Under the pieces are notes generated by a model that saw only the letters and a list, made by a program, of their open reading frames with translations, ran no database searches and was not told the origin of the DNA. Shown here in pieces: positions 1 to 39,580 of a stretch of DNA of 64,000 bases. Position numbers and translations under genes: made by a program. The stretch is from an uncultured Chloroflexia bacterium (GTDB lineage: Bacteria; Chloroflexota; Anaerolineae; DAOTYC01), in the NCBI GenBank assembly GCA_963843645.1, contig CAWJLE010000002.1, forward strand, positions 189,909 through 253,908. The letters are read 5' to 3'. Numbering within the stretch: the stretch's first letter is position 1; each line of letters opens with the position of its first letter.

Positions 1-2
1 TG

Positions 3-194
3 ACGGCGGGGGCGGACGCGGCGAGCGTGACCGTGTACAACAACACGGCGGGCTCGGGGGACAAGGTGTGCGTGCTGAAGGCGGCGGCGGGGACGACGGC
101 GAGCTGGTGCCCGGCGCTGGCGATCGCGTGCGGCGGCGGGCTGTACGCGGCGGTGACCGGGACGACGCCGGACGTGTCGATCGCGTACGTGTGA
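3..194 (+). CDS. hypothetical protein, 3' end (partial; first visible cistron of the co-directional 1-7.7 kb operon)
   Basis: Open frame from the window edge to TGA at ~192-194. Strong third-position G/C bias (gcg/acg/ggg/gtg codons). No start is visible in the window. Confidence 0.4.
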   Translation, partial: TAGADAASVTVYNNTAGSGDKVCVLKAAAGTTASWCPALAIACGGGLYAAVTGTTPDVSIAYV

Positions 195-330
195 GACAGC
201 GGTCAGCTGTCAGCATTCAGCTCTCAGCTGTCAGCAGAAGCCTCACCGGCCGTGAGGGTCGTTGTCATTGCTGATCGCTGATCGCTGACCGCTGAGAGCT
301 GAATGCTGACAGCTGAGTGCTGAGAGCTCG
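190..330. repeat. ~140-nt palindromic intercistronic element (CAGCTGTCAGC / GCTGAGAGCTGAATGCTGAC arms, CCTCACCGGCCGTGAGG apical hairpin), copy A
   Basis: Long perfect stem-loop read directly. An inverted copy lies at 2068-2195. The element is immediately followed by GGGAGG and a start codon. Confidence 0.7.
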
Positions 331-344
331 TCGGGGAGGGTGCG

Positions 345-479
345 GTGAGAGAGCTGGTGTGGGTGGTGGGGTACGCGGTGGTCACGGCGCTGCTGGCGTA
401 TGGACTGGGCAGGCGGCTCCGCCAGGCTGTCCGCCCGGCACAGGCCGCCGGACAGCGTGCGAGGCGGAACGGAGATTGA
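345..479 (+). CDS. small hydrophobic protein (44 aa; one predicted TM helix plus basic tail; holin-like?)
   Basis: GGGAGG RBS 5 nt before GTG. GC3-rich frame translates to VRELVWVVGYAVVTALLAYGLGRRLRQAVRPAQAAGQRARRNGD. Not in the ORF track because of the GTG start. Confidence 0.3.
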   Translation: MRELVWVVGYAVVTALLAYGLGRRLRQAVRPAQAAGQRARRNGD

Positions 480-482
480 GCG

Positions 483-689
483 GTGAAGGTGACGATCGTG
501 CGGTATGGGAAGAAGGTGTCGTTCGGGCACTTCTGCAACGAGGAGGCCCACGTCACGGTGGAAGTAGAGCCGGGCGAAGACGTGATCGCCGCGTTGAACA
601 CAGCCCGGGCGGCGGTCGATGCGACGCTGGCGCAGAGTGAGGCAGAACGGGACGCGGCGTTTGGACTGGATGAAGAGCCGCCGTTCTGA
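483..689 (+). CDS. small hypothetical protein (68 aa)
   Basis: GGAG RBS 6 nt upstream. High GC3 coding frame. Confidence 0.5.
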   Translation: MKVTIVRYGKKVSFGHFCNEEAHVTVEVEPGEDVIAALNTARAAVDATLAQSEAERDAAFGLDEEPPF

Positions 690-766
690 CCAATGGATGT
701 CGGCAATGTGCAGCGACACCGGAACGGTACCGCTGACTGCTGATAGCTGAAAGCTGAGGGCTAACT

Positions 767-2068
767 ATGGCGATGACATTGGCGGCACTGGAAGCGGCGG
801 TGGCGGCGGACCTGGACGACGTGGCGCAGGAGCTGTGGACGACCGGGCAGCTGGAGCGGGCGATCCGGAAAGCGTTGATGCGGTACAGCGAAGTGCGGCC
901 GCAAGTAGTGATGGGGACCGTTGCCTCCGCGGCGACCCGCGAGTACTCGCTGTCGTCGCTGACGGGGTTGGTGGACGTGCTGCGGGTGGAGTGGCCGTGG
1001 GTGCAGGGGGCGGGGATGACGTATCCGCCGCCGTACGTGGATTTCGACGTGCTGGACGACCGGATTTCGATTGCGCTGCGGACGGCGACGTGCCCGAAAG
1101 TGACGGACGCGCCGCTGCGGGTGACATACACGAAGACACACACGCTGTTGGGGTTGGACGGGGCGGCGGGGACGACCGTACCGGCCGAAGACGAAGAGAC
1201 CCTGATCGTGGGGGCGTGCGCCTACGCCGCGATCCAGCGGGCGCGGACCGTCGTCGAGGCCGTCAACCCCAGCGCCGACACCCCGGAGCTGTGGCAGAAG
1301 TGGGGGGAAGCCCGCCTGGCGGAGTTCGAAGCTGAGCTGGCCCGCCTGCAGGCCCGGAAGAGCGCCAAGGGACCCGGACGGACGACCGTCGTCGCGCCGG
1401 CCGGCGACCCGCGAACGCTGGGGTACCTGCGCGACCTGCTGGAGCTGGACCTCAGCGACGTCGAGAACGTGGTGTGGTCCAGCTGGGAGCTGGACCGCGC
1501 CCTGCGCAAAGCCCTGCAGGAGTACAGCGCCGTGCGGCCGCAGGAATACATCTCGACGCTGGCGGCAGCCGACAGCCGCGAGTACGCGCTGACCACGCTG
1601 AACGGGCCGCTGGTGGACGTGCAGCGGGTGTGGTGGCCGTACGACGCCGCGGCGCCCGAATATCCGCCGCAGTGGGTGGAGTTCGAGCTGTGGGACGACA
1701 AGACGATCCTGTTTGTGAAGAGCGATCCGGCGCCGCGGTTGGGGGACAAGCCCCTGCGCATCTTCTACACGAAGGTGCACACCATCGAGGACCTCGACGG
1801 GGCCACGGCGAGCACCTACGGCGCCGAGGACGAAGAAATTCTGCTGGCCGGCGCGGCCGGCTACGCGGCGGCGCAGCGAGCGCGGCAGGCCGGCGCCGAG
1901 TCCGCAGCCAAGTGGACCCGGTGGGGGGACGAGCGGCTGCGGGCCTTCAAAGCCGGCCTGGCGGCGATCGCGCGGCGGATCGAGCGGTACCACGACGCCC
2001 GCGTGGCCATCCAGTGGCCGGACCTGGAGGCCTTCGACGATAAGCACGAAGGCAGCAAGTGGGCGTGA
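767..2068 (+). CDS. hypothetical protein with internal tandem duplication (two homologous ~210-aa repeats)
   Basis: 433-aa ORF. Residues 1-~200 and ~225-430 align (…RALRKAL..YS.VRPQ…REY.L..L.G.LVDV.RV.WP…). Codon choice switches from G-ending to C-ending at ~nt 1260. Confidence 0.7.
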   Translation: MAMTLAALEAAVAADLDDVAQELWTTGQLERAIRKALMRYSEVRPQVVMGTVASAATREYSLSSLTGLVDVLRVEWPWVQGAGMTYPPPYVDFDVLDDRISIALRTATCPKVTDAPLRVTYTKTHTLLGLDGAAGTTVPAEDEETLIVGACAYAAIQRARTVVEAVNPSADTPELWQKWGEARLAEFEAELARLQARKSAKGPGRTTVVAPAGDPRTLGYLRDLLELDLSDVENVVWSSWELDRALRKALQEYSAVRPQEYISTLAAADSREYALTTLNGPLVDVQRVWWPYDAAAPEYPPQWVEFELWDDKTILFVKSDPAPRLGDKPLRIFYTKVHTIEDLDGATASTYGAEDEEILLAGAAGYAAAQRARQAGAESAAKWTRWGDERLRAFKAGLAAIARRIERYHDARVAIQWPDLEAFDDKHEGSKWA

Positions 2069-2195
2069 AGCGGTCAGCGATCAGCGATCAGCGGTCAGCG
2101 ATCAGCAACGACAACGACCCTCACGGCCGGTGAGGCTTCTGCTGACAGCTGAGAGCTGAATGCTGACCGCTGAGAGCTGATCGCTCCTCGGGAGG
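2068..2195. repeat. palindromic intercistronic element, copy B (inverted relative to copy A)
   Basis: Reverse complement matches 190-330 (…CAGCATTCAGCTCTCAGCTGTCAGCAGAAGCCTCACCGGCCGTGAGGGTCGTTGTC…). Followed by GGGAGG and ATG at 2202. Confidence 0.7.
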
Positions 2196-2201
2196 TGGGC
2201 G

Positions 2202-2903
2202 ATGGAGAGTGACGCGGCGGAGTACGGGGTGACCGTGGAGGTCGCGACGGCGGCGGCCGGCGCGAAGTGGCGGTGGGTGGCCACGCGGGTGCACCACCTG
2301 ACGGCGGGCGAGAACAACGGGAATCACAATCTGTACGTCACGCTGCTGGACGAGAACCTGGCGCGGGCGCGGACGCGCACGGCGTGGATCGCCTGGCCGA
2401 CGGAGACCACGTACGAGTACACGATCGAAACGATCCTGCAGGACAAGCCGGAGAATGAGGCGGGCGGCAACGCGCCGCTGTGGAAGCACCAGGTCGTGAG
2501 CTGCGGGGTGAACGTGAACTCGGACGAAGTGAGCGACGTCGTGCGTGGGATCCACACCGAGCATCCGGACGAGCCGCCGGCCACCCCTGGGGGGAACCTG
2601 GGCAACACGCTGTATCACCACTCGTTTCTGGTGGAGTTCACGCGGACGGCGGTAGGCGACCCTGAGCCCACGCCGGACCCGGGCCCGGGCGACGAGGACG
2701 ACGAGGCCTCGGGCGACGAGGACATGCCGGCGTTGGGGGACGTCCCGGAACGGTACTGGGGGTGGATCGAGACGGCGAGCCACGCGCTGAGTCTGGCCAT
2801 GTATCGGCTGAACGTGGTGGTGGCGGCCGGGCCGGCGGTCGGAGACCGGGCGGCGCGAGCGGCGGCCGGCGTCGACGAGGTGCGAAAGGCGTTGACAGGT
2901 TAG
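2202..2903 (+). CDS. hypothetical acidic protein (233 aa)
   Basis: RBS GGGAGG. Uniform G-ending codon usage. Asp/Glu-rich segment PDPGPGDEDDEASGDED. Confidence 0.65.
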   Translation: MESDAAEYGVTVEVATAAAGAKWRWVATRVHHLTAGENNGNHNLYVTLLDENLARARTRTAWIAWPTETTYEYTIETILQDKPENEAGGNAPLWKHQVVSCGVNVNSDEVSDVVRGIHTEHPDEPPATPGGNLGNTLYHHSFLVEFTRTAVGDPEPTPDPGPGDEDDEASGDEDMPALGDVPERYWGWIETASHALSLAMYRLNVVVAAGPAVGDRAARAAAGVDEVRKALTG

Positions 2904-2937
2904 AACGTTGGAACGTTGGAACGTGTGAACGAGGTAG
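2899..2937. repeat. tandem GAACGTTG octamer repeats (AACGTT palindrome cores) upstream of the 2940 gene
   Basis: ttagaacgttggaacgttggaacgtgtgaacgagg read directly. A matching array lies downstream of the gene. Confidence 0.55.
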
Positions 2938-2939
2938 TC

Positions 2940-3926
2940 ATGGGCATACACAAGGGGATCGTGCGGGGGTACGAGGCGGGGACGGGGCTGGTGAGCGTGG
3001 AGCTGGTGGGGAGCCATCCGAGCTTCGTGCAAGTGCCGGCCGGGGCGCACCTGGGGGCGGTGAATCTGGTCGACGGGCGGCGGTGCGCGGTGGTGTTCTT
3101 CGACGAGAGTAACGCGCGGGACGGGCTGGTGGTGGCCACGTACGACGTCGTGGCAGACGCGCACCACACCACGCACGAGAGCGGCGGGGCCGACGAAATC
3201 AGCGTGGCGGGGCTGGCCGGCCAGCTGGCCGAGGCGCAGACGCCCCAAGACTGGACCGCTGCCGGCGAGACCTGGACGTACGCCAGCGCCACGACGGTGA
3301 CCGTAGCCGGCGACGTCACGGGCAAGTACGCCGTGGGCGACAAAGTGCGGCTCAAGCAAGGCGGCGCGTACAAGTACTTCTACGTCGTGAGCGCCACGTA
3401 CAGCGCCCCCAACACCACCCTCACCCTGTACGCCGGCTCGGATTACACCGTGGCCAACGCGGCGATCACCGACCAGGCGTACTCGAAGCTGGCCACGCCC
3501 CAGGGCTTTCCGCACTGGTTCTACTACACGCCCACCTGGACCAGCGGGAGCAACCCGCAGCCGGCCAGTCCCGGCCTGCTGCGCGGCCGCTTCACCCTCA
3601 ACGGCCGACTGTTGTCGTTCGAGTTCGTACTCGTGTACGGACCGTCGACGACCGCGGGCACCGGGCAATGGATCTTTCAGCTGCCGTGGTCCATGGCCGC
3701 GTCGGCCTGGTCGTACGACTGGGCGTACAACTTCCGGGCGCAGATCATCGACGCCGGCACGGGCTACTACTCGCCCGGCCTGTGGGGCTATCCGGCCAGC
3801 GCGGCCACGATCTACGTCATGTTCAACAACTCATTCGGCGTGGGCGGCAACCTCCTGCAGGCCACAGTGCCAATGACCTGGGCCAACGGCGACGTGCTGC
3901 ACGTCAGCGGCGAGTACGAGGTGTGA
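2940..3926 (+). CDS. hypothetical protein (β-rich; possible structural/virion-like protein)
   Basis: ORF track 2916..3926. ATG at 2940 preceded by GAGGTAG. Ser/Thr/Tyr/Gly-rich composition. Codon usage shifts G3→C3 at ~nt 3170. Confidence 0.6.
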   Translation: MGIHKGIVRGYEAGTGLVSVELVGSHPSFVQVPAGAHLGAVNLVDGRRCAVVFFDESNARDGLVVATYDVVADAHHTTHESGGADEISVAGLAGQLAEAQTPQDWTAAGETWTYASATTVTVAGDVTGKYAVGDKVRLKQGGAYKYFYVVSATYSAPNTTLTLYAGSDYTVANAAITDQAYSKLATPQGFPHWFYYTPTWTSGSNPQPASPGLLRGRFTLNGRLLSFEFVLVYGPSTTAGTGQWIFQLPWSMAASAWSYDWAYNFRAQIIDAGTGYYSPGLWGYPASAATIYVMFNNSFGVGGNLLQATVPMTWANGDVLHVSGEYEV

Positions 3927-3927
3927 A

Positions 3928-3975
3928 ACGGGCATTGGAACGTTTGAACGTTTGAACGTTTGAACGTTGGACACC
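3928..3975. repeat. tandem GAACGTTT octamer repeats (4 copies) downstream of the 2940 gene and upstream of the 4024 gene
   Basis: ggaacgtttgaacgtttgaacgtttgaacgttgga read directly. Confidence 0.55.
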
Positions 3976-4023
3976 GCCTGTACGTCTGTCGGTGCAGGAC
4001 GTTGGACTGAGAGGAGCAATGAC

Positions 4024-5223
4024 ATGGGCGAGGCAGCCGAAGGGGCGCGACCGCGGACGGCGGGCGAAGTGTGGGCCGCGGCGAAGGCGGAGCTGGCCGG
4101 GCAAATGACGGGCGCCACGTACGAGCTGTACGTCAGCCGGACGACGGCGGCGGCGCCGGACGCGGACGTCCACGTGGGCGGCGAGCTGGCGGTGGTGGCC
4201 GGCAACGCCCAGGCCGTGGAGTGGCTGGACAAGCGCCTGGGGGCGGTCATCACCCGCACCCTGTGCGGCATCCTGGGCGGCACGGTCAACGTCAGCTACC
4301 AGGTAGCCGCGCCGACGCCGGCGCCGGCCCCCGCCGCGGAACTCGGGCAGCTGGAGCGCGAAGTTCGGGTCGTGGATCGGCGGCGGGGGTTCAGCATCCT
4401 GGAGAACGTCATCGTGGACGAGTACCTGCCGCTGATGGGCTCGACCGTGTTCGCCGTGTACGCCCTGTACAGCCGGCTGGTGAACTACGATCAGGGCTAC
4501 GCCTGGCCCTCGTATCGGACCATCTGCGCCCACCTGCACATCGGGCCGGCGACGCTGGCGGAAGCGAACCAGGTCCTGCAGGTCTTGGGGCTGATCGAAG
4601 TCCGCCCGGGCGACGTGCGGAGCCCCAACGCCTATTACCTGCTCGATGCCGGCGCGATCGACGACGCGCGCCAGGCGGCGATTCTGGCGGCCGCGGCGGC
4701 CTGGGTTCCACCCACGGCGGGGAGCCCGGCCCGCAAGCGCATCGAGGGCGGGCTGAATTCCACCCAGGGCCGGGTCGGCGCGCCGTGGAGCGGCGGCGGG
4801 CGCCCTCGAGGAGATCACAGCACGGCGGAGGGCGCTTCTGATCAGAAGCACCCTGTTACTGACGAGAAGCACCCTGCTTCTAATCAGAAGCACCCTGCTT
4901 CTGGCCCAGAAGCAGAACAAGACAAACAAACAGAACAAACACCAATTGTGGGTCCAGAAACTGTTGTTGTGGATGTGGTTGTGGCCCGCGCTGGCCGCAC
5001 GGACAGTGCGTCCAAAACCGTCGACGACGAAATTTCCGGACACACTCTCCTGGACGAGCTGGTGGCGCTGGGCGTGCAACGGCGGACGGCCCTGGACGCG
5101 GTGATGACGAACGACCGCCGGCGCGTGGCCGGCTGGCTGCGCTACACCCTGGAGCAGGACAACCTCCGCAACCCCGCCGGCTTCCTGCTGAGCATGCTGG
5201 GCACCGGCCGCCAGCCGCCGTAA
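4024..5223 (+). CDS. winged-helix replication-initiator-like protein with an in-frame low-GC 21-nt ×3 tandem-repeat linker
   Basis: ORF 3967..5223. ATG at 4024 after GAGGAG. The segment LPLMGSTVFAVYALYSRLVNYDQGYAWPSYRTICAHLHIGPATLAEANQVLQVLGLIEV resembles initiator/DnaD-type winged helices. Repeats encode (D/E/N)QKHPxx at 4840-4905. Confidence 0.5.
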   Translation: MGEAAEGARPRTAGEVWAAAKAELAGQMTGATYELYVSRTTAAAPDADVHVGGELAVVAGNAQAVEWLDKRLGAVITRTLCGILGGTVNVSYQVAAPTPAPAPAAELGQLEREVRVVDRRRGFSILENVIVDEYLPLMGSTVFAVYALYSRLVNYDQGYAWPSYRTICAHLHIGPATLAEANQVLQVLGLIEVRPGDVRSPNAYYLLDAGAIDDARQAAILAAAAAWVPPTAGSPARKRIEGGLNSTQGRVGAPWSGGGRPRGDHSTAEGASDQKHPVTDEKHPASNQKHPASGPEAEQDKQTEQTPIVGPETVVVDVVVARAGRTDSASKTVDDEISGHTLLDELVALGVQRRTALDAVMTNDRRRVAGWLRYTLEQDNLRNPAGFLLSMLGTGRQPP

Positions 5224-5232
5224 GGGAATCGA

Positions 5233-5339
5233 CCGCAGATGAACGCAGATAAAAGCAGATAAAGACAAGAAACAGAAACGACAAAAAAACAATTGCTTTT
5301 GATCTGTCGTTATCTGTGTTCATCTGCGTTCATCTGCGG
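5233..5339. repeat. AT-rich iteron-like palindromic element (GCAGAT[A/G]AA short repeats in inverted arms around an A-rich spacer)
   Basis: cgcagatgaacgcagataaaagcagataaagacaag … ctgtcgttatctgtgttcatctgcgttcatctgcgg. Related copies at 43555-43650 and 45558-45728. Confidence 0.6.
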
Positions 5340-5374
5340 TTAACTGTCTTTCAGAGACGATTGGGGGTGGGGCA

Positions 5375-7711
5375 TTGAAGGCGTGTTCGGACGAGCTGCT
5401 GGCGGCGATGGCGGGGAAGTCGCTGCAGGCGGAGCTGCAGGTGATCGTCGACGATCGGGCGGTGGGGACACCACGGGCGCGGTGGGAAGACTTCTACAGC
5501 GGGCCGCGGGGCTACGGGCACACCGCGTTTCAGCACATGACCGTGGTGGGCAGCACGCTGTTCGTGGTGGCCTTCGTGAACAGCGCGGGGCAGCTCCTGC
5601 GGCAGAAGCTGAGCGAGGGGACGGCGCCGAACGACGCCTGGTGGCGCACGGCCGGCTCGAACGTCAAGGCCGGCACGCCGATCGCCATGGCGGCGGGGCC
5701 GTACGTGCCGGATGCGTTGGTGTTCTGGGTGGACGCCGACGGGCGGAGTATCAAGTATGCCGACGCCTACACCGACGCCCCCAGCGGCGTCGGGACCACG
5801 GTCGACACCCTGGCGGCCGGGCACACCTGCCTCGGCCTGGCCGCGGTGCGGGTCGACTCCGCGGGGGGCTACGGCATCCGCCTGGCCCTGGTGTACGTCG
5901 ACGGCGCCACCGCCAACGGCAGCGGGGCCGACAAGACCGTCAAGGTCAAGCTGACCGCCGACGGCAGCACCTGGAGCGCCGCCATCGACACCGGCATCCC
6001 GGCCGGCCAAAGCTGCTACGGCGTGGCCGCCCTGAACTACGGCACCACGGCCACCCACGCCGGCCTGCACCTGGTGGTGGCCGGCAAGTACCACGACCTG
6101 GCCCAGGGCGACAACGTCAACGTCTACGCCGTGTCGATCGACGTCGCCGCCAACACCGCCGGCGCGACCTGGCTCGGCTGTCCCCTGCAGGCCAGCAAAG
6201 GGGCCACGGTGAACTGGCGGTACCCGAGCCTCATGCCCGAAACCAGCCTGGACCGCTGCCGCTGCTTTCTGCAGCGCTACGACGGCAGCCTGGCGAGCGA
6301 CAAACGCTGGCGGACCGGCAGCGTCGCCGTGCAGACCCTGGCCGATGGGGCCGTCCTCTTCGGCGACTGGATGCCGTTCGACGCGCGCTGCGCCGTGACC
6401 GTCGGCGTGGGCCGCGTGTGGAACTACCTGTGGTGCCTGTGCGGCGACCACATGTGGCGGGCGCCGTTGTACGACGGCGGCGCCACGTACCGCGTCGACC
6501 TCACCGCCGACGTCGTCGGCCTGCAGCACGCCTACTACGACAACACCCTGTTCCTCGAGGACGTCACCAAAGCCGGCTGGGGTTACCTCATCCTCGACAA
6601 CCATGACAACCGCTATCAGAACCTCGGCCAGAGCGGCAAGTACCAGGCCGTCAAACGCGGCGCCCAGGTCGTCATGAAGGTCGGCTACCGCTGGCGTGAC
6701 CCCGCCACCAGCCAGTGGGTCAGCGAAACCAAGATCCTGCCGCCCATGTGGATCTCGCGGATCATTCAGGTCAACAACCCCGCCGTCAGCACGGCCGGCG
6801 GATTACCGCGGCTGAGCGTGCAGGGCGCGCCCAGCCTGGGCGGCTCGTTCATCGTCCTCAGCCTGTACGACGGGTGGGCCATCACCACCCACCGCCTGGC
6901 CAAGTACTACTTCGGGTGGGACAGTGCCCGGCCGCGCAGCGTCCTGCAGGACGCCTTCCTGACCGGCATGGGGTTCACCTACAGCGACGACGGCACGGCG
7001 GCCCTCGGCGTGGCCGAGACCGGCGTCGTGCGGCAGACCCTGCAGGGCAAGCCCTACTGGGCCATGATCAAAGACATCCTCAACACCGTCGGCTGCCGCA
7101 TGAAGTTCTACACCGAAGACGACGAAGAGGCCACCAGCCCCACCGTGCGGGTCCACGTCTTCACCACCACAGCCGCGGACCAGGCCGACGCCGCGTATGG
7201 CGACACCGGCGAGCCCCGCCTGTACGCCAGTATCTACTGGGAGCAAGACCGGGCCAGCTGGCTGCGGTGGATGTGGTGGTACCAGGTCGTCGAGGACGCC
7301 GCGGCCGCGATCGCGTCGGCCGGCTCGCCCCTGGTGGGCGCCCCGATCACCGGCGCGCGGGTCGAGGGCAAAGACGTCGCGGCGGAGTACATCGCCTTCG
7401 ACGAAGTCGAGCGCCTCGGGCTCTACCAGCCGATGACCATCCTCGACGACAACATCACCACGGCCGAGGCCGCCGAAGCGCGGGCCGCGTTCGCGGCCTC
7501 GCAGGCGGTGCAAGGCATGCAGAGCGGCTGCATCCTCGTGCCCGTGCATCCGGGCTTGGAGCTGTGGGACCGCATCGAGATCACCGACGCGAAGGCCTGC
7601 TTCAACCCGATGAGCCGGCGGGTCGCCGGCGTCGAAACGTTTTATGACAAGCGGGGTAAGCGCTGCCAGTACGAGCAGGTGGTGTATCTGTGGGGACTGG
7701 AGCCGTGGTGA
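5375..7711 (+). CDS. large hypothetical protein (778 aa)
   Basis: Long ORF with consistent GC3. TTG/alternative start per ORF track. No recognisable catalytic motif. G3-type codons in the first ~100 codons, C3-type thereafter. Confidence 0.7.
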   Translation: MKACSDELLAAMAGKSLQAELQVIVDDRAVGTPRARWEDFYSGPRGYGHTAFQHMTVVGSTLFVVAFVNSAGQLLRQKLSEGTAPNDAWWRTAGSNVKAGTPIAMAAGPYVPDALVFWVDADGRSIKYADAYTDAPSGVGTTVDTLAAGHTCLGLAAVRVDSAGGYGIRLALVYVDGATANGSGADKTVKVKLTADGSTWSAAIDTGIPAGQSCYGVAALNYGTTATHAGLHLVVAGKYHDLAQGDNVNVYAVSIDVAANTAGATWLGCPLQASKGATVNWRYPSLMPETSLDRCRCFLQRYDGSLASDKRWRTGSVAVQTLADGAVLFGDWMPFDARCAVTVGVGRVWNYLWCLCGDHMWRAPLYDGGATYRVDLTADVVGLQHAYYDNTLFLEDVTKAGWGYLILDNHDNRYQNLGQSGKYQAVKRGAQVVMKVGYRWRDPATSQWVSETKILPPMWISRIIQVNNPAVSTAGGLPRLSVQGAPSLGGSFIVLSLYDGWAITTHRLAKYYFGWDSARPRSVLQDAFLTGMGFTYSDDGTAALGVAETGVVRQTLQGKPYWAMIKDILNTVGCRMKFYTEDDEEATSPTVRVHVFTTTAADQADAAYGDTGEPRLYASIYWEQDRASWLRWMWWYQVVEDAAAAIASAGSPLVGAPITGARVEGKDVAAEYIAFDEVERLGLYQPMTILDDNITTAEAAEARAAFAASQAVQGMQSGCILVPVHPGLELWDRIEITDAKACFNPMSRRVAGVETFYDKRGKRCQYEQVVYLWGLEPW

Positions 7712-7721: not shown

Positions 7722-7800
7722 TTCTCTCTTGGAGGCGCAACGATTTCGGAGTATACTAACTGGATTCATAAGCCAACGGTTGAATGCGAAATCCGGAATC
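7722..7800 (+). promoter_or_regulatory. conserved promoter plus structured leader, copy 1 (TTGGAG-17-TATACT, then GATTTCGGAGTATACT…AAGCCAACGGTTG…GCGAAATC)
   Basis: About 80 nt nearly identical to 29996-30076. Contains a σ70-like -35/-10 with 17-nt spacer and a GATTTCG/CGAAATC inverted repeat. Confidence 0.45.
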
Positions 7801-8030
7801 GACGTGTTCGGCAAAGAGGGACGAGGTACTACCACTTCTGGAGACTGGCGGCGTCTCCGGGAACGAGCACTGTGTGGTCACGATCGTGTCTCCAGAAGCC
7901 CCGCGCATGGGGATAAAGCTTCATCGAATACCAACAGAAGTCGGTGAAGCAAAGAAGGTCCGACGAATTGGCCCGGGAATCGCCATCGTGCAAACAACAT
8001 GCCGAGTCTGACTTTCTCTACGGGAGGGGG

Positions 8031-8723
8031 ATGCAAGCCAGAATGGACAACGAACGCCTGACACAGAAGAAACAGCAGCGCTATGATTTCCTCAAGAAGC
8101 TCTACGATAAGACGGACGGAAAAGATCTTGTTCCCGTAAACTTCGACGGGTTCGCGGAAGAACTGGGTTTGAACAAAGAAGCCACACGTGACGTCATCCA
8201 GTACCTAAAGGGTGAAGGCTTAGTGAGGCAGCACACCCAAGAACTGGTGAGCATTACGCACGCGGGAGTTCTCGAGGTCGAGGAGACGATGGAGCATCCA
8301 GATAGGCCGACGTCCCATTTTCCGCCCGGTGTCAACATCCTGCATATCGAGACCGTGAAAGACTCGCAAATACAACAGGGGACCTTCGCCTCGTCGCCCC
8401 AAATCCAATTCCGTGATGACGAGATATCAAGAGCCTTTGCCAGCCTATTACAACAGGTTGAGTCGTTGGCAGAAGGACCAGACAAGCGTGACGCCAAACA
8501 TGCGGTGGAGATGCTTGAAGAAGAGGCACGCAAAGGCACACACGCTCATGAAGGAACCGTGCGGAGGTGGCTCAATTTCCTTCTCGAAACTGCCCCAGCC
8601 GCCGGGGAAGTCGCGGTGACCACCTTCATCAATCCAATTGCCGGAGTGGCTAAAGTATTCCAGAAGGTAGCAGAGAAGGCGAAACAGGAAAGAGAACAAG
8701 GCGCCCATCATGGCCCGAACTGA
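8031..8723 (+). CDS. winged-helix (wHTH) DNA-binding protein with uncharacterised C-terminal domain; first gene of the low-GC island
   Basis: ATG after GGGAGGGGG RBS. N-terminus (KKLYDKTDGKDLVPVNFDGFAEELGLNKEATRDVIQYLKGEGLV) is a typical wHTH. GC ~50% vs ~68% in flanks. Confidence 0.65.
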   Translation: MQARMDNERLTQKKQQRYDFLKKLYDKTDGKDLVPVNFDGFAEELGLNKEATRDVIQYLKGEGLVRQHTQELVSITHAGVLEVEETMEHPDRPTSHFPPGVNILHIETVKDSQIQQGTFASSPQIQFRDDEISRAFASLLQQVESLAEGPDKRDAKHAVEMLEEEARKGTHAHEGTVRRWLNFLLETAPAAGEVAVTTFINPIAGVAKVFQKVAEKAKQEREQGAHHGPN

Positions 8724-8771
8724 GCATCCTGCGAAGAACCTCGCCACTGGAAACCTCAGCGGAGGCGACAG

Positions 8772-9719
8772 ATGAGCGACAAGCAGAACGATGATATCCT
8801 GCAGTCCACGACGCCCAAACCTTTTGTGTTCGTCTTGATGCCCTTTGATCGGTCATTTGACGACATTTACAAGTTCGGAATTAAGGGCGCAGCGGAGCAA
8901 GTTGGAGCCTATGCAGAGCGGGTAGACGAGCAGATCTTCACTGAAGGTATTCTCGACAGGATCTTCAGCGAGATCAACAAGGCTGATGTAGTGGTTGCAG
9001 ATATGACAGGGCGAAATCCCAACGTGTTCTACGAGGTCGGCTATGCCCACGCTCTGGGCAAGATCGTGCTGCTGGTGACAAGAGACGCCAACGACATTCC
9101 CTTTGATCTTCAGCACCAACAGCACACGGTCTATGGCGGGAGCATCGACACATTGAAGAGCGAGCTGGCTAGAAAGCTGCGCTGGGCAATTACCAATCCG
9201 AAGGCAAGATCAGCCGACGTCGTCGTCACTCTGCAGTTCTCGCGACTCGATTCACGCCCGCCCAAAGCGTATATACTTGAGGTGCATATAGCGAATGATG
9301 GGCTTGAGACCATAGAACGCTTCAGTCTGCAGATTGAAGCCCCGCACTATCAACCCAGTAGGGAACCAAAGAATGTCCGTACAGCCGATCTGAGTCTTAG
9401 AGACCATGCTCTTGACCGCTGTGAGACTGAGTTTCTCTCGTTCCCAGACTCGACAAGGACGTCTTTGAAAATGACTTATTGGTCTCCGCATCCTCTCCTG
9501 CCTGGGCAGCGGATCTCGTTAACCAGCAAATTCCGCTACGGACTCGAGTTCCGTGGATTCGACAAGGCCCAGGTCCTCGAGTGGTTCAGAGTCACGTCAA
9601 GCCTAGACAACTCCAAGTTGTCTTGGTCTCTCTATTGTGATCGCCGACCTTCCACAAACGGGCAGCTTTCACTTTCCGAACTATTCGAGGCCGAGCCGTC
9701 GACCTCGGTGTGGCTCTAG
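8772..9719 (+). CDS. nucleoside 2-deoxyribosyltransferase-like / TIR-like (SLOG-superfamily) N-glycosidase-motif protein with unknown ~170-aa C-terminal domain
   Basis: FVFVLMPFD…ADVVVADMTGRNPNVFYEVGYAHALGKIVLLV matches the NDT/DNPH1-type motif (β1-Asp; catalytic Glu in the E-x-G-Y-A motif). GGAGG RBS. Low GC. Confidence 0.65.
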   Translation: MSDKQNDDILQSTTPKPFVFVLMPFDRSFDDIYKFGIKGAAEQVGAYAERVDEQIFTEGILDRIFSEINKADVVVADMTGRNPNVFYEVGYAHALGKIVLLVTRDANDIPFDLQHQQHTVYGGSIDTLKSELARKLRWAITNPKARSADVVVTLQFSRLDSRPPKAYILEVHIANDGLETIERFSLQIEAPHYQPSREPKNVRTADLSLRDHALDRCETEFLSFPDSTRTSLKMTYWSPHPLLPGQRISLTSKFRYGLEFRGFDKAQVLEWFRVTSSLDNSKLSWSLYCDRRPSTNGQLSLSELFEAEPSTSVWL

Positions 9720-10037
9720 TGCGCCCTCATGGGTTCTCGGATCCCGCCTTCGCCATGGCTGTTTCGACGACGTGATCACATTAACCTGATGTGGCCGACT
9801 CATGACATGGGCTCGACTTGTGGATCGCTCAGATGTCGCAGATGTGTGTGAATCCGTGGTGCCGCAACTGGGGCGAAGCAAGCAGAAAAGACGTGTCCTC
9901 GCGGTGCAGCGCAGCCGCGCCTAGAGCTGAGGCCGGGGCAATTGTTGCCGTTTCGAGCGGACAGTGTTCCTGAACGAGGGCCAGTCTCAGTGTCGCCGGA
10001 CGATGCCCGCCACGCCAGCCCGAAAGGGAGATAAGCC

Positions 10038-10988
10038 ATGACAGACTGCGATGCCCCGCCCAACTCGTATGATCGATTTTATGAGCACAATCGCGACACC
10101 TTTGGAGAGTACATGCCAAAGGAAAAGCTGATGGATGCTCTCTACTATCATTTTCTTCCATCTCAATTCGCGATAGATGATCTTGCAAAGCAGAGGATCA
10201 AGGTTAGTACAATAGACACTCTTAATGACCCGTTTGAAATGAACCCCTATATGCGATGCGATGACGACATAAGGCCGGAGTATCGCGAGGAGCGCAGCAG
10301 AATTTGTGACAATTACGGTCTCTTGTGTTTTTGCCATGACTGGCGCGAAACGCTTCTGTGGTCGTACTATGCCGACAAGCACAGAGGCATTGCAATAGGC
10401 TTTGATATTCCATCGGATGACGTGATAGAAGTTTGCTACACCCTCAACCCGACAAGGCAACGAGTTGAGCTGACGGATAACCCAAGAGAGGTCGAGAAGC
10501 AATTCCTAGATTTGGCCAAGGTCAAGTACGGAGAGTGGATGCACGAGAGAGAAGCCAGAGTACTAGTCGAACGGAAAGACTGGAAGGATGAACCAGTTGA
10601 CAAGTGTGGGAAGCAGGCCCTTTACCGCTTCCGCCATTTTGACAATAGGCTACAAGTGAAGGCTATAGTGTTGGGCTGTAGGTTTCCCTATTCGAAAGCA
10701 TGGGAGGACATACTGCGAGAAGCCAAGAAGCTGGAGGCTTGGATTGTTCCTACACGAGAGGCCTGGGAAGGCTACAAGATACGTCTACGCAACCGCAAGG
10801 CCAAACCCGGCACATCAGAGTGTCCGTCCGGCAGTCCATCGGCGTCTGGATCCCCCAGTTCTAGCGCCTCCCCGTCGGAGTGTACGTTTCTCAGTCCGTC
10901 GGCCTCTCCATCTGCCGGTCCCAGCGCCTCCCCGTCTGCGTCCGCATCTCCCAGTCTCAGTGCGGATGAAGATATGCCAAACGATTGA
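10038..10988 (+). CDS. DUF2971-family protein with C-terminal Ser/Pro-rich low-complexity tail
   Basis: Signature motifs LNDPFE and LLCFCHDWRETLLWSYYADKHRGIAIGF match the DUF2971 hallmarks (NDPxE; MWshYAd.hkG). Tail PSGSPSASGSPSSSASPS… is encoded by imperfect ~60-nt repeats. Confidence 0.75.
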   Translation: MTDCDAPPNSYDRFYEHNRDTFGEYMPKEKLMDALYYHFLPSQFAIDDLAKQRIKVSTIDTLNDPFEMNPYMRCDDDIRPEYREERSRICDNYGLLCFCHDWRETLLWSYYADKHRGIAIGFDIPSDDVIEVCYTLNPTRQRVELTDNPREVEKQFLDLAKVKYGEWMHEREARVLVERKDWKDEPVDKCGKQALYRFRHFDNRLQVKAIVLGCRFPYSKAWEDILREAKKLEAWIVPTREAWEGYKIRLRNRKAKPGTSECPSGSPSASGSPSSSASPSECTFLSPSASPSAGPSASPSASASPSLSADEDMPND

Positions 10989-11175
10989 TGTCCTGACAAA
11001 GAAATCATTACGGCAGCGGCGCAGCTTCCCGCTTGTTGCCTGCGACCGGCCATTGGCCAACAGAACGACAAGTTGCTGACCCCCAAACTGCAGGGTGAGC
11101 AGCCGAAGTATCCGTACGGCACGGAGATGACGTTCAAGCAGGCGCAGCGTTGCTATTCTGGAAGTGTGGAGAGCG

Positions 11176-12012
11176 ATGACTGTGCGTGCGCTCGTGGAGG
11201 AGAACAGTGCCATGACCAGAAGGGAGCAAAAGGAAGAGGAGTTGGTTGTCTTCAATGAACTGAAGGCCATCGTTCCGCACTTCCCCACTGCAGAGCAGAG
11301 TGAGTGTCCTGATTTCTTGGCGGAGACTAGCGCTGGGACTCTTGGCATCGAACTCGAGTGCTACATACGAAAACAAAACCCGGGCGCATCTGACGACGAT
11401 AATCCACGTCAGTACGATCAGTTTCGAAAACAGGTTCAAGCCGAGACTCAAGCCAAGTTTGAACGAATGTGCCACCCTCCCGTTTTGGCCACCTTCTTTT
11501 GGTTCTCGTATGACCTGATTCAGAGTAGGAAAAAAACCAACCCGACATGGTATCGAACAAGACCCGCGGAGTTGGCGTCCCAAGCCGCCGATCTGATGTG
11601 TCGCTCTTTGTCCGGGCTTGGCCCGGAAGTAAACCGGATAAGGATCCCACACGTCGAAATGCCGCAATCTCTTCGAGGTTATCTTCACTGCATTGATATG
11701 TGGATCTGGCCGGGTTTGGAACGCACTGAGTGGTCCGCGGTCGATTCTGGTCGGGTGACCGTGGCACCTCAGGAACTGGAGAGACTTATTGCATATAAAG
11801 ACCAAGCGAAGCTCAATGAGTATCTGAAACACTGCCAGTCGTGCTGGTTGGTGATCTACGCAGACGGCAAGCACATCTCCTCCACTGCCTTAATCAGCCC
11901 CGAACTTCCGGCTTACAGATTCAACACGCGTTTCTCGAGGGTATTGTTCTACTATGATCGTTATGAGCACCGTTACCTCGACCTTCTCATAGGGAATCGC
12001 GGTAGTTCCTGA
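11176..12012 (+). CDS. hypothetical protein (last gene of the low-GC island; weak PD-x(n)-ExE nuclease-like motif)
   Basis: ORF 11164..12012. ATG at 11176 after GGAGAG. Low-GC codon usage. PDFLAETSAGTLGIELECYIRK is only weakly nuclease-like. Confidence 0.55.
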   Translation: MTVRALVEENSAMTRREQKEEELVVFNELKAIVPHFPTAEQSECPDFLAETSAGTLGIELECYIRKQNPGASDDDNPRQYDQFRKQVQAETQAKFERMCHPPVLATFFWFSYDLIQSRKKTNPTWYRTRPAELASQAADLMCRSLSGLGPEVNRIRIPHVEMPQSLRGYLHCIDMWIWPGLERTEWSAVDSGRVTVAPQELERLIAYKDQAKLNEYLKHCQSCWLVIYADGKHISSTALISPELPAYRFNTRFSRVLFYYDRYEHRYLDLLIGNRGSS

Positions 12013-14641: not shown

Positions 14642-14785
14642 GGTACTGGGGCGACCAAGGTCGCGTCTGGATTACGAAGCCCGCCTCCGCGGGCTACGGC
14701 AACAGGAAGAACGGTCCTTCTGTCGCCGCAGCCCGCGGAGGCGGGCTTCGTAGTCCAGACGCGACCTTGGTCGCCCCGTACCGCC
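14642..14785. repeat. MITE-like palindromic repeat, family P1 (…GGTCGCGTCTGGATTACGAAGCCCGCCTCCGCGGGCTA… hairpin)
   Basis: ~145-bp near-perfect palindrome. Other copies at 55170-55325 and 63621-63775. Spurious ORFs translate it as …RSRLDYEARLRGL…. Confidence 0.75.
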
Positions 14786-15769: not shown

Positions 15770-16030
15770 GCCCTTCGCCGTCGCGCCGCCGCCCCTCGCC
15801 GTCGCACCGCCGCCCCTCGCTGTCGCGCCGCCGCCCCCGAATACTGTCACCCTGAGGAAGCGCCGTATGCGACCGAAGGGTCTCGCGCGCGAAAGACGAG
15901 CCCGTCTAGGTCGACCAAAAGGGCTCGTCTCTCGCGCGCGAGACCCTTCGGTCGCATACGACGCTCCCTCAGGGTGACAGTAATCGAGGGCGGCGGTGCG
16001 CGACGAGGGGCGGCGGTGCGACGGCGCGAC
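15770..16030. repeat. composite palindromic repeat, family P2 core (GTCACCCTGAGGAAGCGCCGTATGCGACCGAAGGGTCTCGCGCGCGA…) flanked by inverted 21-bp tandem repeats
   Basis: Core hairpin 15846-15981. Left arm has 3× CGCCGCCCCTCGCCGTCGCGC; right arm has their reverse complements. Related copies at 27228-27410 and 63361-63520. Confidence 0.7.
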
Positions 16031-21132: not shown

Positions 21133-21478
21133 AACCAATCCTCCTTGGAAGAGACGAGCGCTTCCACTCGGGGTGGGCCGGGCTGAGCGGCGCCAGGGGG
21201 ACCGATCGACGAAGGACGGGTACTTCCCAATCGCAGGGTGGCGGTCACGACGTAGGGGAGGGTGGCGAGGGATGGCGGCTGTCATCGTGCACGTCGTTCC
21301 TGTGAATTCACGTATATACCGCTTCATTATATTGGCGTTCGCCGATGCGCGGCTATGACGCGCGTCACCCGCGCGCGCCTCGAGGGTGCGGCACCGAGAG
21401 CCGCACCCTCCGGGCCGAACGCCGGGGGGCTACGGTCTCGCCCATAGTCGGATTCACCCGACGCTCGGCAACCTGACT

Positions 21479-21640
21479 CCTACCCACTTTGCTCACTCAG
21501 CCGCCGCAGACCTCTCTCCCGGCCTCTCCCCTGCAAAGGGAGAGGAGAACGTCAACCGATTTGCTCCTCTCCCTTTGCAGGGGAGAGGCCGGGAGAGAGG
21601 TCTGCGGCGGCTGAGTGAGCAAAGTGGGTAGGAGTCAGCT
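21479..21640. repeat. MITE-like palindromic repeat, family P3 (…CTCTCCCGGCCTCTCCCCTGCAAAGGGAGAGGAGAAC… hairpin)
   Basis: ~160-bp near-perfect palindrome. Other copies at 58546-58700 and 60492-60592. Confidence 0.75.
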
Positions 21641-37178: not shown

Positions 37179-37348
37179 CGCTCACCTGGTTCCCCGAGTC
37201 CGTCACGGACTCTCGGCGTGGGAAGCCCCCATCGTCAGAGGGGGCTCATTCGCACATGACATATGAATGGGCGAATTATACCACACAATCGCGAAACGTC
37301 TACGGACCTTGCCCTGCCCGAAGCCCATTCGGCTTCCCGAGCGGGCCG

Positions 37349-39538: not shown

Positions 39539-39580
39539 GATGATCTCCTGTAGGGTGAAAGTGATGCACGCACTGCGCGC

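Follow-up and report, generated by a model that had tools for sequence, protein, structure and literature searches.

Repeat-filled gene junctions and a putative internal replication origin in an operon probably derived from a tailed-phage-like element

Eight co-directional coding open reading frames fill positions 3–7711 of the window (the whole stretch of 64,000 nucleotides that was analysed). All eight lie on the plus strand and have coding-type GC3 values (0.78–0.98), compared with GC3 values of 0.65–0.70 and GC1 values of 0.78–0.95 for the antisense frames. A scan for sigma-70-like promoters found none within positions 1–7700, so one long transcript would fit this arrangement, and the operon would end at 7711. 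The frames encode, among others, a fragment of a small conserved virion-module protein, a protein made of duplicated 211-aa units, a tail fibre, an initiator-like protein and a large conserved orphan. This gene content agrees with the original prediction, which had listed six to eight plus-strand genes, including a protein with an internal duplication, a 778-aa protein, a small single-TM protein and an initiator-like protein.

The first frame (3–194) starts outside the window and encodes the C-terminal 63 residues of a phage protein of about 89 aa belonging to the phrog_28102 family. The fragment is 56% identical (E 3e-18) to an 89-aa protein of the related locus L004 and shares 38–62% identity with the IMG/VR loci L008–L015 by tblastn, and the 89-aa homologues match phrog_28102 at 1.7e-6 to 3.6e-5. 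In L008, this gene is located between protease-capsid and tape-measure genes, with portal, head morphogenesis, protease-major head and tape-measure genes around it. A 44-aa frame (345–479, GC3 0.78), preceded by GGGGAGGG, encodes a putative single-pass membrane peptide, hydrophobic over one stretch (LVWVVGYAVVTALLAYGLG) and basic in its tail, and gave no family match. It is followed by a 68-aa frame (483–689) with coding-type GC3, for which no significant homologue was found (E 0.22 against an 84-aa frame of L015). The 433-aa protein (767–2068) consists of two tandem units of about 211 aa, and its halves are 40% identical (E 1e-45). L004 (211 aa) and L015 (221 aa) each encode a homologue with one unit, and L002 and L016 encode duplicated ones; in L016, a protease-major head fusion lies about 7 kb upstream of the gene for the 435-aa homologue. 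Searches of Pfam, PHROG and PDB with the 433-aa protein gave no match, and its AF2 model reached a pLDDT of 38; it may be a structural-module protein of unrecognised fold. The 233-aa frame (2202–2903, GC3 0.91) had no family match and no homologue among the fetched loci.

The 328-aa protein (2940–3926) was assigned as a tail fibre or receptor-binding protein. Residues ~104–328 matched 7746 cluster representatives at E ≤ 1e-3, in some of which this domain is joined to a beta-helix tailspike, as in P0023, or to a collagen-like tail fibre, as in P0073. The protein also matches phrog_13144 (1.5e-7) and, weakly, a gene of Pseudomonas phage BUCT566 annotated as 'putative pectate lyase'. Judged by these matches, its C-terminus is a tail-fibre/tailspike tip domain of wide occurrence. 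In L004, the gene in the equivalent position shares 39% identity with the N-terminal 69 aa, which also resemble positions 1696–2307 of L015. The last operon gene (5405–7711) encodes an ORFan of 767 aa, or of 778 aa if read from a TTG at 5375, with coding-type GC3. Among 5.8 billion proteins it matched itself and P0002 (71%) only, and it is 38% identical over its full length to a 764-aa homologue in L015. Pfam, PHROG, PADLOC and PDB yielded no match, and the AF2 model had a pLDDT of 30. In L001, an intrinsic terminator lies directly 3' of the corresponding gene.

Between these two genes lies that of a 399-aa replication-initiator-like protein (4024–5223) with a central HTH, a low-complexity linker and a conserved C-terminal domain. 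It matches the PHROG categories replication initiation O-like (7.5e-6) and replication initiation protein (1.1e-4), and Pfam HTH_36 at a sub-cut-off 1e-3; these family matches are weak. Its L015 homologue (39% identical over 392 aa) independently matches the same PHROGs (O-like at 1.1e-5), and the C-terminal 66 aa are 53% identical to a fragment in L001. No plasmid match was found for the initiator. Four dyad iterons (GCTTCT-N4-5-AGAAGC) with 21-nt spacing are found inside the gene at 4834–4914, followed by an A-rich tract (~4913–4965, 40–42% GC). The iteron core and the GAACAAAACAAAC... tract recur in the same place in L015, kept nearly base for base though the initiators are only 39% identical. 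At the corresponding place L001 has different 27-nt dyad repeats beside the conserved C-terminal domain. With good support, we infer that iterons and A-rich tract form a replication origin within the initiator gene (4834–4965). The HTH domain would bind the iterons, which are two helical turns apart, and melt the A-rich tract, as in the O gene of phage lambda. The lambda origin likewise has four dyad-symmetric iterons ahead of an AT-rich tract, placed in the linker-coding part between DNA-binding and C-terminal domains; the retention of the iterons in L015 and their exchange in L001 next to a conserved C-terminal domain, as well as the weak O-like PHROG matches, fit the same picture. However, the initiator has no significant sequence similarity to lambda O and only sub-threshold matches in Pfam, a P-like or helicase-loader gene is not visible beside it, and it is encoded among structural-type late genes instead of an early replication module.

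Short tandem repeats or long hairpins take up nearly every gap of the operon. Hairpin 1 (197–328; −92.5 kcal/mol, z −7.0) begins 3 nt past a stop codon, leaves about 5 nt to the next frame's SD and is composed of (CAGCNNT)x5.6, a small GC hairpin within an asymmetric core, and (GCTGANN)x8; no U-tract was found 3' of its stem. Hairpin 2 (2069–2185; −74.8 kcal/mol, z −4.65), which begins right after a stop codon and ends before the SD GGGAGGTGGG, is an inverted copy with 91% complementarity to 197–307 over 111 nt and an identical 26-nt core on the opposite strand. The first octamer array (2899–2931, plus strand), (GAACGTTG)x3–4, shares nucleotides with the stop codon that ends the 233-aa gene, continues into the fibre-gene SD GAACGAGG and folds no better than shuffles (z −0.7). 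The second (3938–3968, plus strand), (GAACGTTT)x3.9, follows the stop codon of the fibre gene at 12 nt, precedes the ATG of the initiator gene by 55 nt and is moderately structured (z −2.7), its palindromic units pairing with themselves. GAACGTT octamer arrays gave 5 matches against 0.01 expected. Hairpin 3 (5231–5340; −60 kcal/mol, z −7.4) begins 8 nt past the initiator stop codon and has arms of 10-nt units (GCAGATRAAM) around an AT-rich centre (28% GC). The inverted hairpin copies and GAACGTT arrays had been described in the original prediction. An additional heptamer array that it did not mention, purely direct, is located at 732–764 (plus strand); its (GCTGANN)x4.5 units run into the SD GCTGAGGG of the 433-aa gene and are no better structured than shuffles (z −0.4). 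Three consecutive GCTGANN units were matched 20 times against 0.01 expected, all within 196–2180.

The further claim that each gap holds a structured element stood for the three hairpins, which fold strongly (z −4.6 to −7.4), but not for two of the three direct arrays, so clearly structured elements are present in three gaps only. The AT-rich palindrome at 5231–5340, once regarded as iteron-like, was rejected as an origin, since members of its repeat family are found in the chromosome at 43554–43651 and 45561–45722 and the real iterons lie inside the initiator gene. Hairpins in gaps are not distinctive of the operon, because long hairpins are a genome-wide habit here: 16 of the 19 intergenic long inverted repeats of the window lie outside the operon, about 40% of the larger gaps of the adjacent chromosome have long hairpins, and equivalent hairpins occupy housekeeping operon gaps, such as the one at 58579–58680 that separates a gene for an ABC-transporter binding protein from the ORF next to it.

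Downstream of the operon, a non-coding block, CTTGGAGGCGCAACGATTTCGGAGTATACT (7728–7757, plus strand; TTGGAG-17 nt-TATACT), is identical to L001 at 25 of 30 positions, while the flanks diverge and different cargo follows in L001. The block was not called by a simple promoter scan; it is a candidate promoter for the island downstream. This low-GC island (7944–12012, plus strand, 52–56% GC) comprises four co-directional genes with defence-type domains (TCAD2 at 1.2e-8; Nuc_deoxyrib_tr/TIR-like) and PADLOC matches to a TIR effector (1.9e-11) and PDC-S31 (1.8e-22), and is probably cargo at the end of the element. A link between operon and island, as originally suggested, is plausible in view of the block conserved ahead of other cargo and the defence-type proteins.

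The operon proteins are near-orphans without housekeeping identity, as had been expected, and none turned out to be a conserved core-genome family. All of their relatives come from metagenome contigs or from viral contigs of IMG/VR (those of the 89-aa and 211-aa families include IMG/VR UViGs), and more distant ones adjoin portal, protease-capsid and tape-measure genes. Together with the tail-fibre/tailspike tip domain, these relationships support a phage origin of the operon, previously raised as a possibility and consistent also with the initiator-like gene. Of the full relatives, L015 is the closest: this IMG/VR contig of 9.8 kb shares the gene set, lacks a capsid gene and additionally encodes an HNH endonuclease, a PAPS-reductase-like protein and, as we read its sequence, a SprT-like protease; it is probably incomplete, as no terminal repeat was found. 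In L005, a triple HNH homing endonuclease is inserted between the 89-aa and 211-aa family genes.

Taken as a whole, the explanation that we consider somewhat more probable than not is that positions 3–7711 are the distal part of a long co-directional operon of an integrated tailed-phage-like element from an undescribed lineage. The status of a complete prophage was withheld: as the window starts inside the element, cutting it at its left edge, genes for capsid, portal, terminase and integrase are not visible, nor is an att site. An initiator and origin among same-strand structural-type genes are atypical for tailed phages, which was counted against this explanation. The 433-aa and 767-aa proteins, lacking a recognisable fold and with unusable AF2 models, were also counted against it; a structural role for both is suggested by their gene neighbourhood, its sole support.

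For the gap repeats, a role at the RNA level, in processing or coupling on the polycistronic mRNA, is a weaker inference. The three long hairpins, placed right after stop codons and without U-tracts, might act as intercistronic elements of REP or RNase III type that stop 3' exonucleases or supply processing sites and in this way set the relative levels of the upstream and downstream cistrons. The strand-specific direct heptamer and octamer arrays abut SD sequences and would form leaders, for the most part weakly structured, on which ribosomes are loaded or to which an RNA-binding protein that recognises the repeats attaches, so that translation of the next gene might be tuned. Heptamer repeats directly upstream of start codons have a precedent in the TAACTGA-type repeats (MacGregor 2015, PMC4679880), an unexplained class that the arrays of the operon resemble. 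Like TAACTGA-type heptamers, cyanobacterial STRR heptamers and long simple sequence repeats (Mrazek 2007), its direct heptamer arrays are predicted to be unstructured, and the (A/G)CTGA core of TAACTGA recurs in the CCACTGA units of L004 and in GCTGANN. In contrast, the units are not TAACTGA, the arrays in this window are limited to the phage-like element and not genome-wide, some pair with inverted copies into 110–130-nt hairpins, and periods of 8 and 10 nt are found as well.

Alternatively, the repeats might be functionless by-products of slippage, which expands 7–10-nt units in gaps, and of a host-wide spread of hairpins, with the element sharing the mutational habits of its host. We regard this as the least unlikely of the alternatives. 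In favour of the main explanation, the closest relatives have same-strand short-period arrays abutting start codons too, with completely different units: four heptamer arrays in L004, (GGRTGAA)x5 right after the initiator stop codon in L001, and an 8-mer-built hairpin plus 30-nt units ahead of three starts in L015. L005 and the more distant phages compared have no such arrays. Since units differ completely among relatives and L005 is without arrays, neutral slippage fits as well as function; periods also vary among close relatives and even between gaps of one element, and several of the many long hairpins in the chromosomal part of the window have tandem sub-units. Heptamers are described as the commonest long simple-sequence repeats in prokaryotes and attributed to polymerase slippage (Mrazek 2007, as cited in PMC4679880). 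Yet the GCTGANN and GAACGTT arrays are confined to the operon and absent from the other 56 kb of the window, the start-proximal arrays are all on the coding strand and merge into the SD, and arrays occur at homologous junctions in relatives of 57–68% GC. Moreover, an ACGTT core before the fibre gene is common to the window and L004, and a GATGAA core after the initiator to the window and L001, each with an estimated chance of about 2–5%.

It is rather doubtful that the three hairpins arrived in the gaps, in one orientation or the other, as MITE/REPIN-like miniature mobile elements instead of having evolved as operon signals. The opposite orientation and shared core of the 91% identical hairpins 1 and 2, the chromosomal relatives of hairpin 3 and other multi-copy families in the window (24904/29842 and 58579/60492) would suit such an origin. 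However, no target-site duplications are evident, the heptamer hairpin has only two copies in 64 kb, both in the operon, its arm heptamer also makes the direct array at 732–764, and no RAYT-type or other transposase is nearby (the IS110 at 52064–53437 is unrelated).

Among known systems, the hairpins come closest to REP/BIME and Correia/ERIC-type intercistronic hairpins and T7 RNase III sites: long imperfect palindromes without U-tracts directly follow stop codons in co-directional operons and are multi-copy in the genome, and the hairpin at 58579–58680 is equivalent. In contrast to these systems, they have no sequence relation to them, their arms are made of tandem 7–10-nt sub-units and no RAYT or transposase was identified.

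That the element is a small self-replicating satellite, phage-plasmid or PICI-like island, with its own initiator and origin and a few virion-modifying genes in place of a full prophage, appears unlikely. The initiator and origin amid structural-type genes, the capsid-free gene set of L015 and the visible 7.7 kb without a tape-measure or capsid gene would be in line with it, but L015 is probably incomplete, the left edge of the window cuts the element, distant homologues of two genes belong to ordinary full-size phage structural modules, and the initiator lacks a plasmid match. Least probable is that the arrays are DNA operators, cooperatively bound by a small ribbon-helix-helix-type regulator that silences or road-blocks the operon in lysogeny with a stoperator-like effect: tandem units of 7 or 8 bp, arrayed both directly and inverted, have the architecture of omega (pSM19035)/ParR heptads and MetJ met boxes, GAACGTTK units contain the palindrome AACGTT and many junctions of one mobile element have arrays, as with omega, MetJ and stoperator sites, but no array is overlapped by a sigma-70-like promoter, no RHH or other small DNA-binding protein was recognised among the visible genes, shared cores change period among relatives (7 vs 8, 7 vs 10), which is hard for a protein lattice on duplex DNA, the L004 arrays all have a single orientation, and mycobacteriophage stoperators are single 13-bp sites, not tandem arrays.

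In the main explanation, the conserved promoter-like block after 7711 would drive variable, low-GC defence cargo, and the hairpins all over the host chromosome would probably do the same job as those of the operon.

Eight plus-strand open reading frames (ORFs) lie within 3-7711, and their third-position GC (GC3) of 0.78-0.98 is of the coding type, whereas the long antisense ORFs of the operon show the mirror pattern in codon-position GC that is typical of non-coding frames. The co-directional gene cluster proposed in the original prediction is therefore real. According to the ORF calls, it starts with the C-terminal fragment of an 89-aa-family protein cut by the window edge (3-194), followed by a 44-aa ORF with one 19-residue hydrophobic stretch and then a basic tail (345-479), a 68-aa ORF (483-689), a 433-aa protein consisting of two halves (767-2068), an ORF between hairpin 2 and octamer array 1 (2202-2903), a 328-aa protein with matches to fibre tip domains (2940-3926), a 399-aa initiator-like protein with a PHROG match (4024-5223), and a 767-aa protein (5405-7711; 778 aa with a TTG start at 5375). 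The 68-aa ORF was considered as a homologue of an 84-aa ORF of the viral contig L015 and rejected (E 0.22).

Searches of the operon proteins against Pfam, PHROG, PADLOC, and PDB sequences gave almost no matches. An internal duplication had been predicted and was found in the 433-aa protein, the halves of which are 40% identical to each other (E 1e-45). Among 5.8 billion clustered proteins, this protein has one relative (49% identity; contig L002), and the 767-aa protein also has one (71% identity; contig L001). Exact-protein look-ups found nothing for the 778-aa, 767-aa, and 433-aa proteins, and for other window proteins they returned only 100%-identical short contigs of run ERR11571143 (L003 and L007), which gave no reading of copy-number variation. 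Profiles of the 211-aa unit of the 433-aa protein and of the 767-aa family gave nothing significant against PDB sequences, and AlphaFold2 on two-sequence alignments reached a pLDDT of 30 for the 767-aa and 38 for the 433-aa protein. An identity of the 211-aa unit and the 767-aa protein with the T7 gp11/gp12 adaptor/nozzle was dropped, as only the sizes are similar and no match supports it.

In tblastn comparisons with GenBank phages and plasmids, the 778-aa, 433-aa, and 89-aa proteins and the initiator remained without a match; among the GenBank phages, the fibre tip was the only part of the operon proteins to be matched. Residues ~104-328 of the 328-aa protein have matches in 7746 cluster representatives, some of these being beta-helix tailspikes or collagen-like tail fibres that end in this tip domain, and a weak match was obtained to a gene of Pseudomonas phage BUCT566 annotated as putative pectate lyase. 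By these matches, the 328-aa protein is a tail-fibre or receptor-binding protein. The candidate for the winged-helix initiator-like protein of the original prediction is the 399-aa protein, with an E-value of 7.5e-6 against the PHROG family 'replication initiation O-like' (1.1e-5 for its L015 homologue) and 19 bits against Pfam HTH_36, which is under the 25-bit cut-off. A word-index search with the initiator returned no protein besides itself.

Two scans of 185,579 GTDB species genomes detected no relatives. Relatives were obtained from a metagenome scan queried with the 433-aa alignment (contigs L004, L005, and L006) and from IMG/VR scans queried with family alignments (L008-L016). They thus occur in viral and metagenomic contigs and not as core genes of bacterial genomes, and the opposite pattern, core-genome families shared among relatives, was not seen. 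By tblastn, L004 has an 89-aa protein with 56% identity to the fragment in the window, one copy of the 211-aa unit, and the N-terminal part of a fibre gene (39%). The related genes of the 9.8-kb viral contig L015 all share one strand. Its initiator is 39% identical over 392 aa and its homologue of the 767-aa protein, 764 aa long, 38% over the full length; the contig also carries the 89-aa protein, a fibre-like gene, and just one 221-aa unit. In L016, a head protease-major capsid fusion is followed, ~7 kb further downstream, by a duplicated 435-aa homologue, and in L008 the 89-aa gene is flanked by portal, head-morphogenesis, and protease-capsid genes at one end and by a tape-measure gene at the opposite end.

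Relatives in viral and metagenomic contigs, structural-gene neighbours, and the tail-fibre domain together mark the cluster as phage-derived, as had been suspected. Capsid, portal, and terminase genes are absent from the visible 7.7 kb and present only in the more distant L008 and L016; the element continues to the left beyond the window edge. No integrase was matched among the scanned ORFs from 7.7 to 19 kb, the left end again lying outside, the window contains no tRNA in a tRNA scan, and Rfam at gathering thresholds gave no hit in the whole window. The feature set is real and well-delimited, and its most fitting interpretation is the distal operon of a novel phage-like element, in which the initiator gene contains a lambda-style origin and the junctions are filled with repeats. 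The window starts inside the element, which may be a full tailed-phage (Caudoviricetes) prophage or a smaller satellite-like replicon. The window, L001, L002, L004, L005, L015, and L016 form a small, coherent, unannotated virus lineage, and the gene content is ordinary viral dark matter, that is, an integrated phage-like module with orphan proteins.

Some of these contigs carry further features. Between the 89-aa and 433-like genes of L005, a 326-aa protein (715-1695) is inserted that has three HNH / His-Me finger endonuclease modules in tandem and resembles a free-standing homing endonuclease. In L015, structural-type genes flank a PAPS-reductase-like gene (5127-5984; PHROG 1.7e-32), and the 15-mer GTATCGTACCTTACA recurs four times at module boundaries (266-283, 3870-3890, 8371-8390, and ~9060), where it may serve as promoter or operator.

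Phage lambda has its origin, ori-lambda, within gene O; the part coding for the linker contains the iterons and an AT-rich tract, and specificity is tied to the N-terminal domain. The window shows the same layout inside the initiator ORF (4024-5223), where four GCTTCT-N4-5-AGAAGC dyad units spaced 21 nt apart (4834-4914) are followed by the A-rich tract GAACAAGACAAACAAACAGAACAAACACCAA. GC content is 40-42% at about 4900-4974 vs 66-82% in the preceding 250 nt (4600-4849). Despite a protein identity of only 39%, the initiator gene of L015 has the same iteron core in four copies, spaced 22 nt, and in the corresponding position a nearly identical tract, GAACAAAACAAACAACAACACCAA. L001, which is cut here, has two 27-nt dyad repeats whose sequence differs from that of the window iterons; shortly behind them follows a C-terminal domain with 53% identity to that of the window initiator. 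Owing to the ori-lambda-like layout, the candidate origin was placed in the initiator gene and not at the AT-rich hairpin, and a putative replication origin would lie at the iterons and the A-rich tract. The AT-rich palindrome (hairpin 3, 5231-5340), originally regarded as iteron-like, was rejected as an origin or iteron set in view of its chromosomal relatives and of the conserved iterons at 4834-4914.

Directly after the 767-aa gene, a 30-nt block (7728-7757, TTGGAG-17-TATACT) is identical in 25 of 30 positions in L001, where its flanks diverge and a different downstream sequence follows. In the window, four co-directional genes of a low-GC island (7944-12012, 52-56% GC) lie downstream of the block, with matches to TCAD2, a TIR-effector (PADLOC 1.9e-11), and the candidate defence protein PDC-S31 (1.8e-22), and with a 282-aa protein as the fourth. 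The same gene arrangement is present in the Logan contig L003 (run ERR11571143). For the proposal that island and operon are one composite element, the block shared with L001 ahead of different cargo supports, but does not prove, that the island would be variable cargo of the same element.

The repeats predicted for the gaps of the operon were all recovered, namely two mutually inverted hairpins, GAACGTT octamer arrays, and an AT-rich hairpin. Three consecutive GCTGANN units were observed 20 times vs 0.01 expected, all within 196-2180, and there were no (GCTGANN) matches in the other 56 kb of the window. Hairpin 1 (197-328) and hairpin 2 (2069-2185), 117-132 nt long, are built of (CAGCNNT)n opposite (GCTGANN)n across an asymmetric core, and they match each other over 111 nt with 91% complementarity, their 26-nt cores being identical on opposite strands. 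Folding energies are -92.5 kcal/mol (z -7.0) for hairpin 1 and -74.8 kcal/mol (z -4.65) for hairpin 2, and hairpin 3, with 10-nt GCAGATRAAM units in the arms and a 28%-GC centre, reaches z -7.4. A direct heptamer array (732-764) continues into the Shine-Dalgarno (SD) sequence of the 433-aa gene, and GAACGTTK octamer arrays are present at 2899-2931 and 3938-3968. The claim that every gap holds a structured element stands for the three gaps with hairpins but not for the direct heptamer array (z -0.4) and octamer array 1 (z -0.7), neither of which folds better than shuffled sequence; octamer array 2 folds moderately better than shuffles (z -2.7) because of the palindrome AACGTT within its units. 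Canonical intrinsic terminators were rejected for the hairpins, as these have no U-tract and a terminator scan gives only a small inner stem.

Long inverted repeats with arms of 17-121 nt are also found in many gaps of the other 56 kb. A scripted census of the window counted 19 long inverted repeats in intergenic DNA, of which 16 lie beyond the operon, and 14 of the 35 gaps of at least 90 nt are occupied (16 of 35 if two that overlap over-extended start codons are counted). As 16 of 19 lie outside the operon and ~40% of the larger gaps are filled, gap hairpins are a habit of this genome, and the hairpins largely reflect the host. Some chromosomal hairpins are made of tandem sub-units like those of the operon; the one at 43554-43651 (CCGATGAACGCGGATAAACGCAGAT) clearly belongs to the same family as hairpin 3, and the one at 45561-45722 has GATAAAGACAA in common with it. 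Hairpin 58579-58680 separates an ABC-transporter binding-protein gene from the ORF that follows, which is the classic location for REP elements. The hairpins might be MITE/REPIN-like insertions; as in such elements, they are imperfect palindromes present in several copies in intergenic DNA, hairpins 1 and 2 being two copies of one element and hairpin 3 having relatives at 43554 and 45561, whereas no target-site duplications were found at the hairpin flanks and no RAYT or hairpin-cognate transposase was found, the only transposase seen in the window being of the IS110 family (52064-53437). Hairpin 'anomalies' in this genome should thus not be read as element-specific; unlike the hairpins, heptamer and octamer arrays occur nowhere in this window but in the operon.

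Several further observations concern the chromosome part (12193-63826). Its 16 hairpins include those at 14648-14777, 15824-16000, 21473-21638, 24904-25027, 27253-27382, 29842-29967, 55162-55334, 58579-58680, 60492-60584, 63337-63544, and 63569-63826; arms are often 93-100% complementary, there are several multi-copy families, co-directional, convergent, and divergent gaps are all occupied, and the density is unusually high. A 1.4-kb gene-free stretch contains three 26-nt tandem-repeat blocks (CGGGCGTCTTCGGATCGCACCGTGGC, 3-4 copies each) with a 324-nt period (25023-25725). Two different genes have upstream of them (at 45787-45855 and 61678-61742) a palindromic box AAACTTCCGAAGTTT and, behind it, 2.7-3.8 tandem copies of a 17-19-nt unit containing CGGAAGTTTG; this arrangement resembles a shared operator for one regulator. 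The GC3 of the IS110-family transposase gene is below that of neighbouring genes, and its best plasmid matches, on Nostoc and Tolypothrix plasmids, are ~51% identical. An 824-aa ORF on the minus strand (37203-39677) has MFS transporter matches only in residues 344-482 and is overlapped by same-strand frames at 37349-38197 and 38672-39538 with a coding-type GC3 of 0.89, which suggests frameshifts, a pseudogene, or overlapping mis-called ORFs.

Arrays comparable to those of the operon were found in its closer relatives. L004 has (TTCACGY)x5.6, (CCACTGA)x5, (TCACGYT)x11.4, and (TTTCACG)x12 on the coding strand, each extending from the stop codon of one gene up to the SD or start of the following one. 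L001 has (GGRTGAA)x5 right behind the initiator stop codon. In L015, a hairpin of CGCCAAGG units with an AT-rich loop (z -3.5) lies between the 89-aa and fibre genes, and one to four copies of a 30-33-nt unit GATTCTTCACTGCGTTCAGAATGACAGGGG precede three start codons; in L002, repeated hairpin-forming units precede the 433-aa homologue. No 7-8-nt gap arrays were detected in L005 or in the more distant phages L008-L014 and L016. Before the fibre gene, the window and L004 share an ACGTT core (period 8 vs 7), and after the initiator, the window and L001 share a GATGAA core (period 10 vs 7). As each of these shared cores at matching junctions has a chance expectation of 2-5% by rough estimate, they are merely suggestive. 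Within the lineage, gene junctions are thus systematically filled by short tandem repeats that adjoin the start codons, and such arrays are a trait of the lineage. Apart from this, the gap before the 767-aa homologue of L001 (384-584) holds a ~105-nt tandem duplication ending in CCTCAGAATGACATGGGG, and the TCAGAATGACAKGGGG leader from this gap recurs before the homologous gene in L015 and, in the degenerate form TTCAGAGACGATTGGGGG, at 5351-5368 of the window.

To our knowledge, a function has never been established for heptamer repeats of this placement. Tandem direct heptamers, forward, intergenic, and a few nucleotides from a start codon, are present at 270-328, 732-764, and 2141-2185 of the window and at 101-139, 605-639, 1140-1221, and 2386-2471 of L004, and these arrays share their position and orientation with TAACTGA-type repeats, whereas the units GCTGANN, CCACTGA, TTCACGY, and GGRTGAA all differ from TAACTGA. 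Also, TAACTGA-type repeats are spread over many unrelated genes, whereas GCTGANN arrays are confined to 196-2180 within the 64 kb of the window. A role as leader, in ribosome loading or for a repeat-binding protein, has been proposed (PMC4679880) for the TAACTGA repeats that immediately precede start codons in Beggiatoaceae, cyanobacteria, and Bacteroidetes.

Directly observed are the placement, strand bias, and folding propensity of the repeats and the conservation of the trait. The whole cluster would be one transcript, with no sigma-70-like site in 1-7700, and in L001 an intrinsic terminator follows the last gene homologue. The hairpins, being without U-tracts, would stabilise or process the mRNA in a REP-like or RNase III-like manner, and the arrays would form leader sequences that load ribosomes or are bound by a repeat-binding protein. 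In its full form, the proposal is that the strand-specific tandem 7-10-nt leader arrays of this phage-like lineage are a post-transcriptional code, in which each junction array, sometimes folded on an inverted copy, is read by a repeat-binding protein or the ribosome and sets translation and stability of every late-operon gene; this is speculative and unlikely. Alternatively, the repeats might be neutral products of slippage. Another possibility is that the arrays are operators in duplex DNA, bound by an RHH-type regulator, an architecture with precedents in omega heptads and MetJ boxes, but 1-7700 contains no promoter-like site and the visible ORFs, the small ones being hard to classify, have no RHH or regulator match. 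All-frame stop 'insulators' were rejected, as the TGA in GCTGANN and CCACTGA would fit while TTCACGY arrays are without forward-frame stops.

For annotators, a lineage with two new conserved protein families and a recognisable origin in the initiator gene provides a handle on such contigs. The junction arrays are its unusual part and tie the element to an unexplained class of repeats. If the leader-array proposal were true, the heptamer repeat class (TAACTGA, STRR) would gain a compact and testable model system. In any case, a 10-kb phage operon with 5-8 such junctions is far easier to work with as a test bed than an uncultured giant bacterium.
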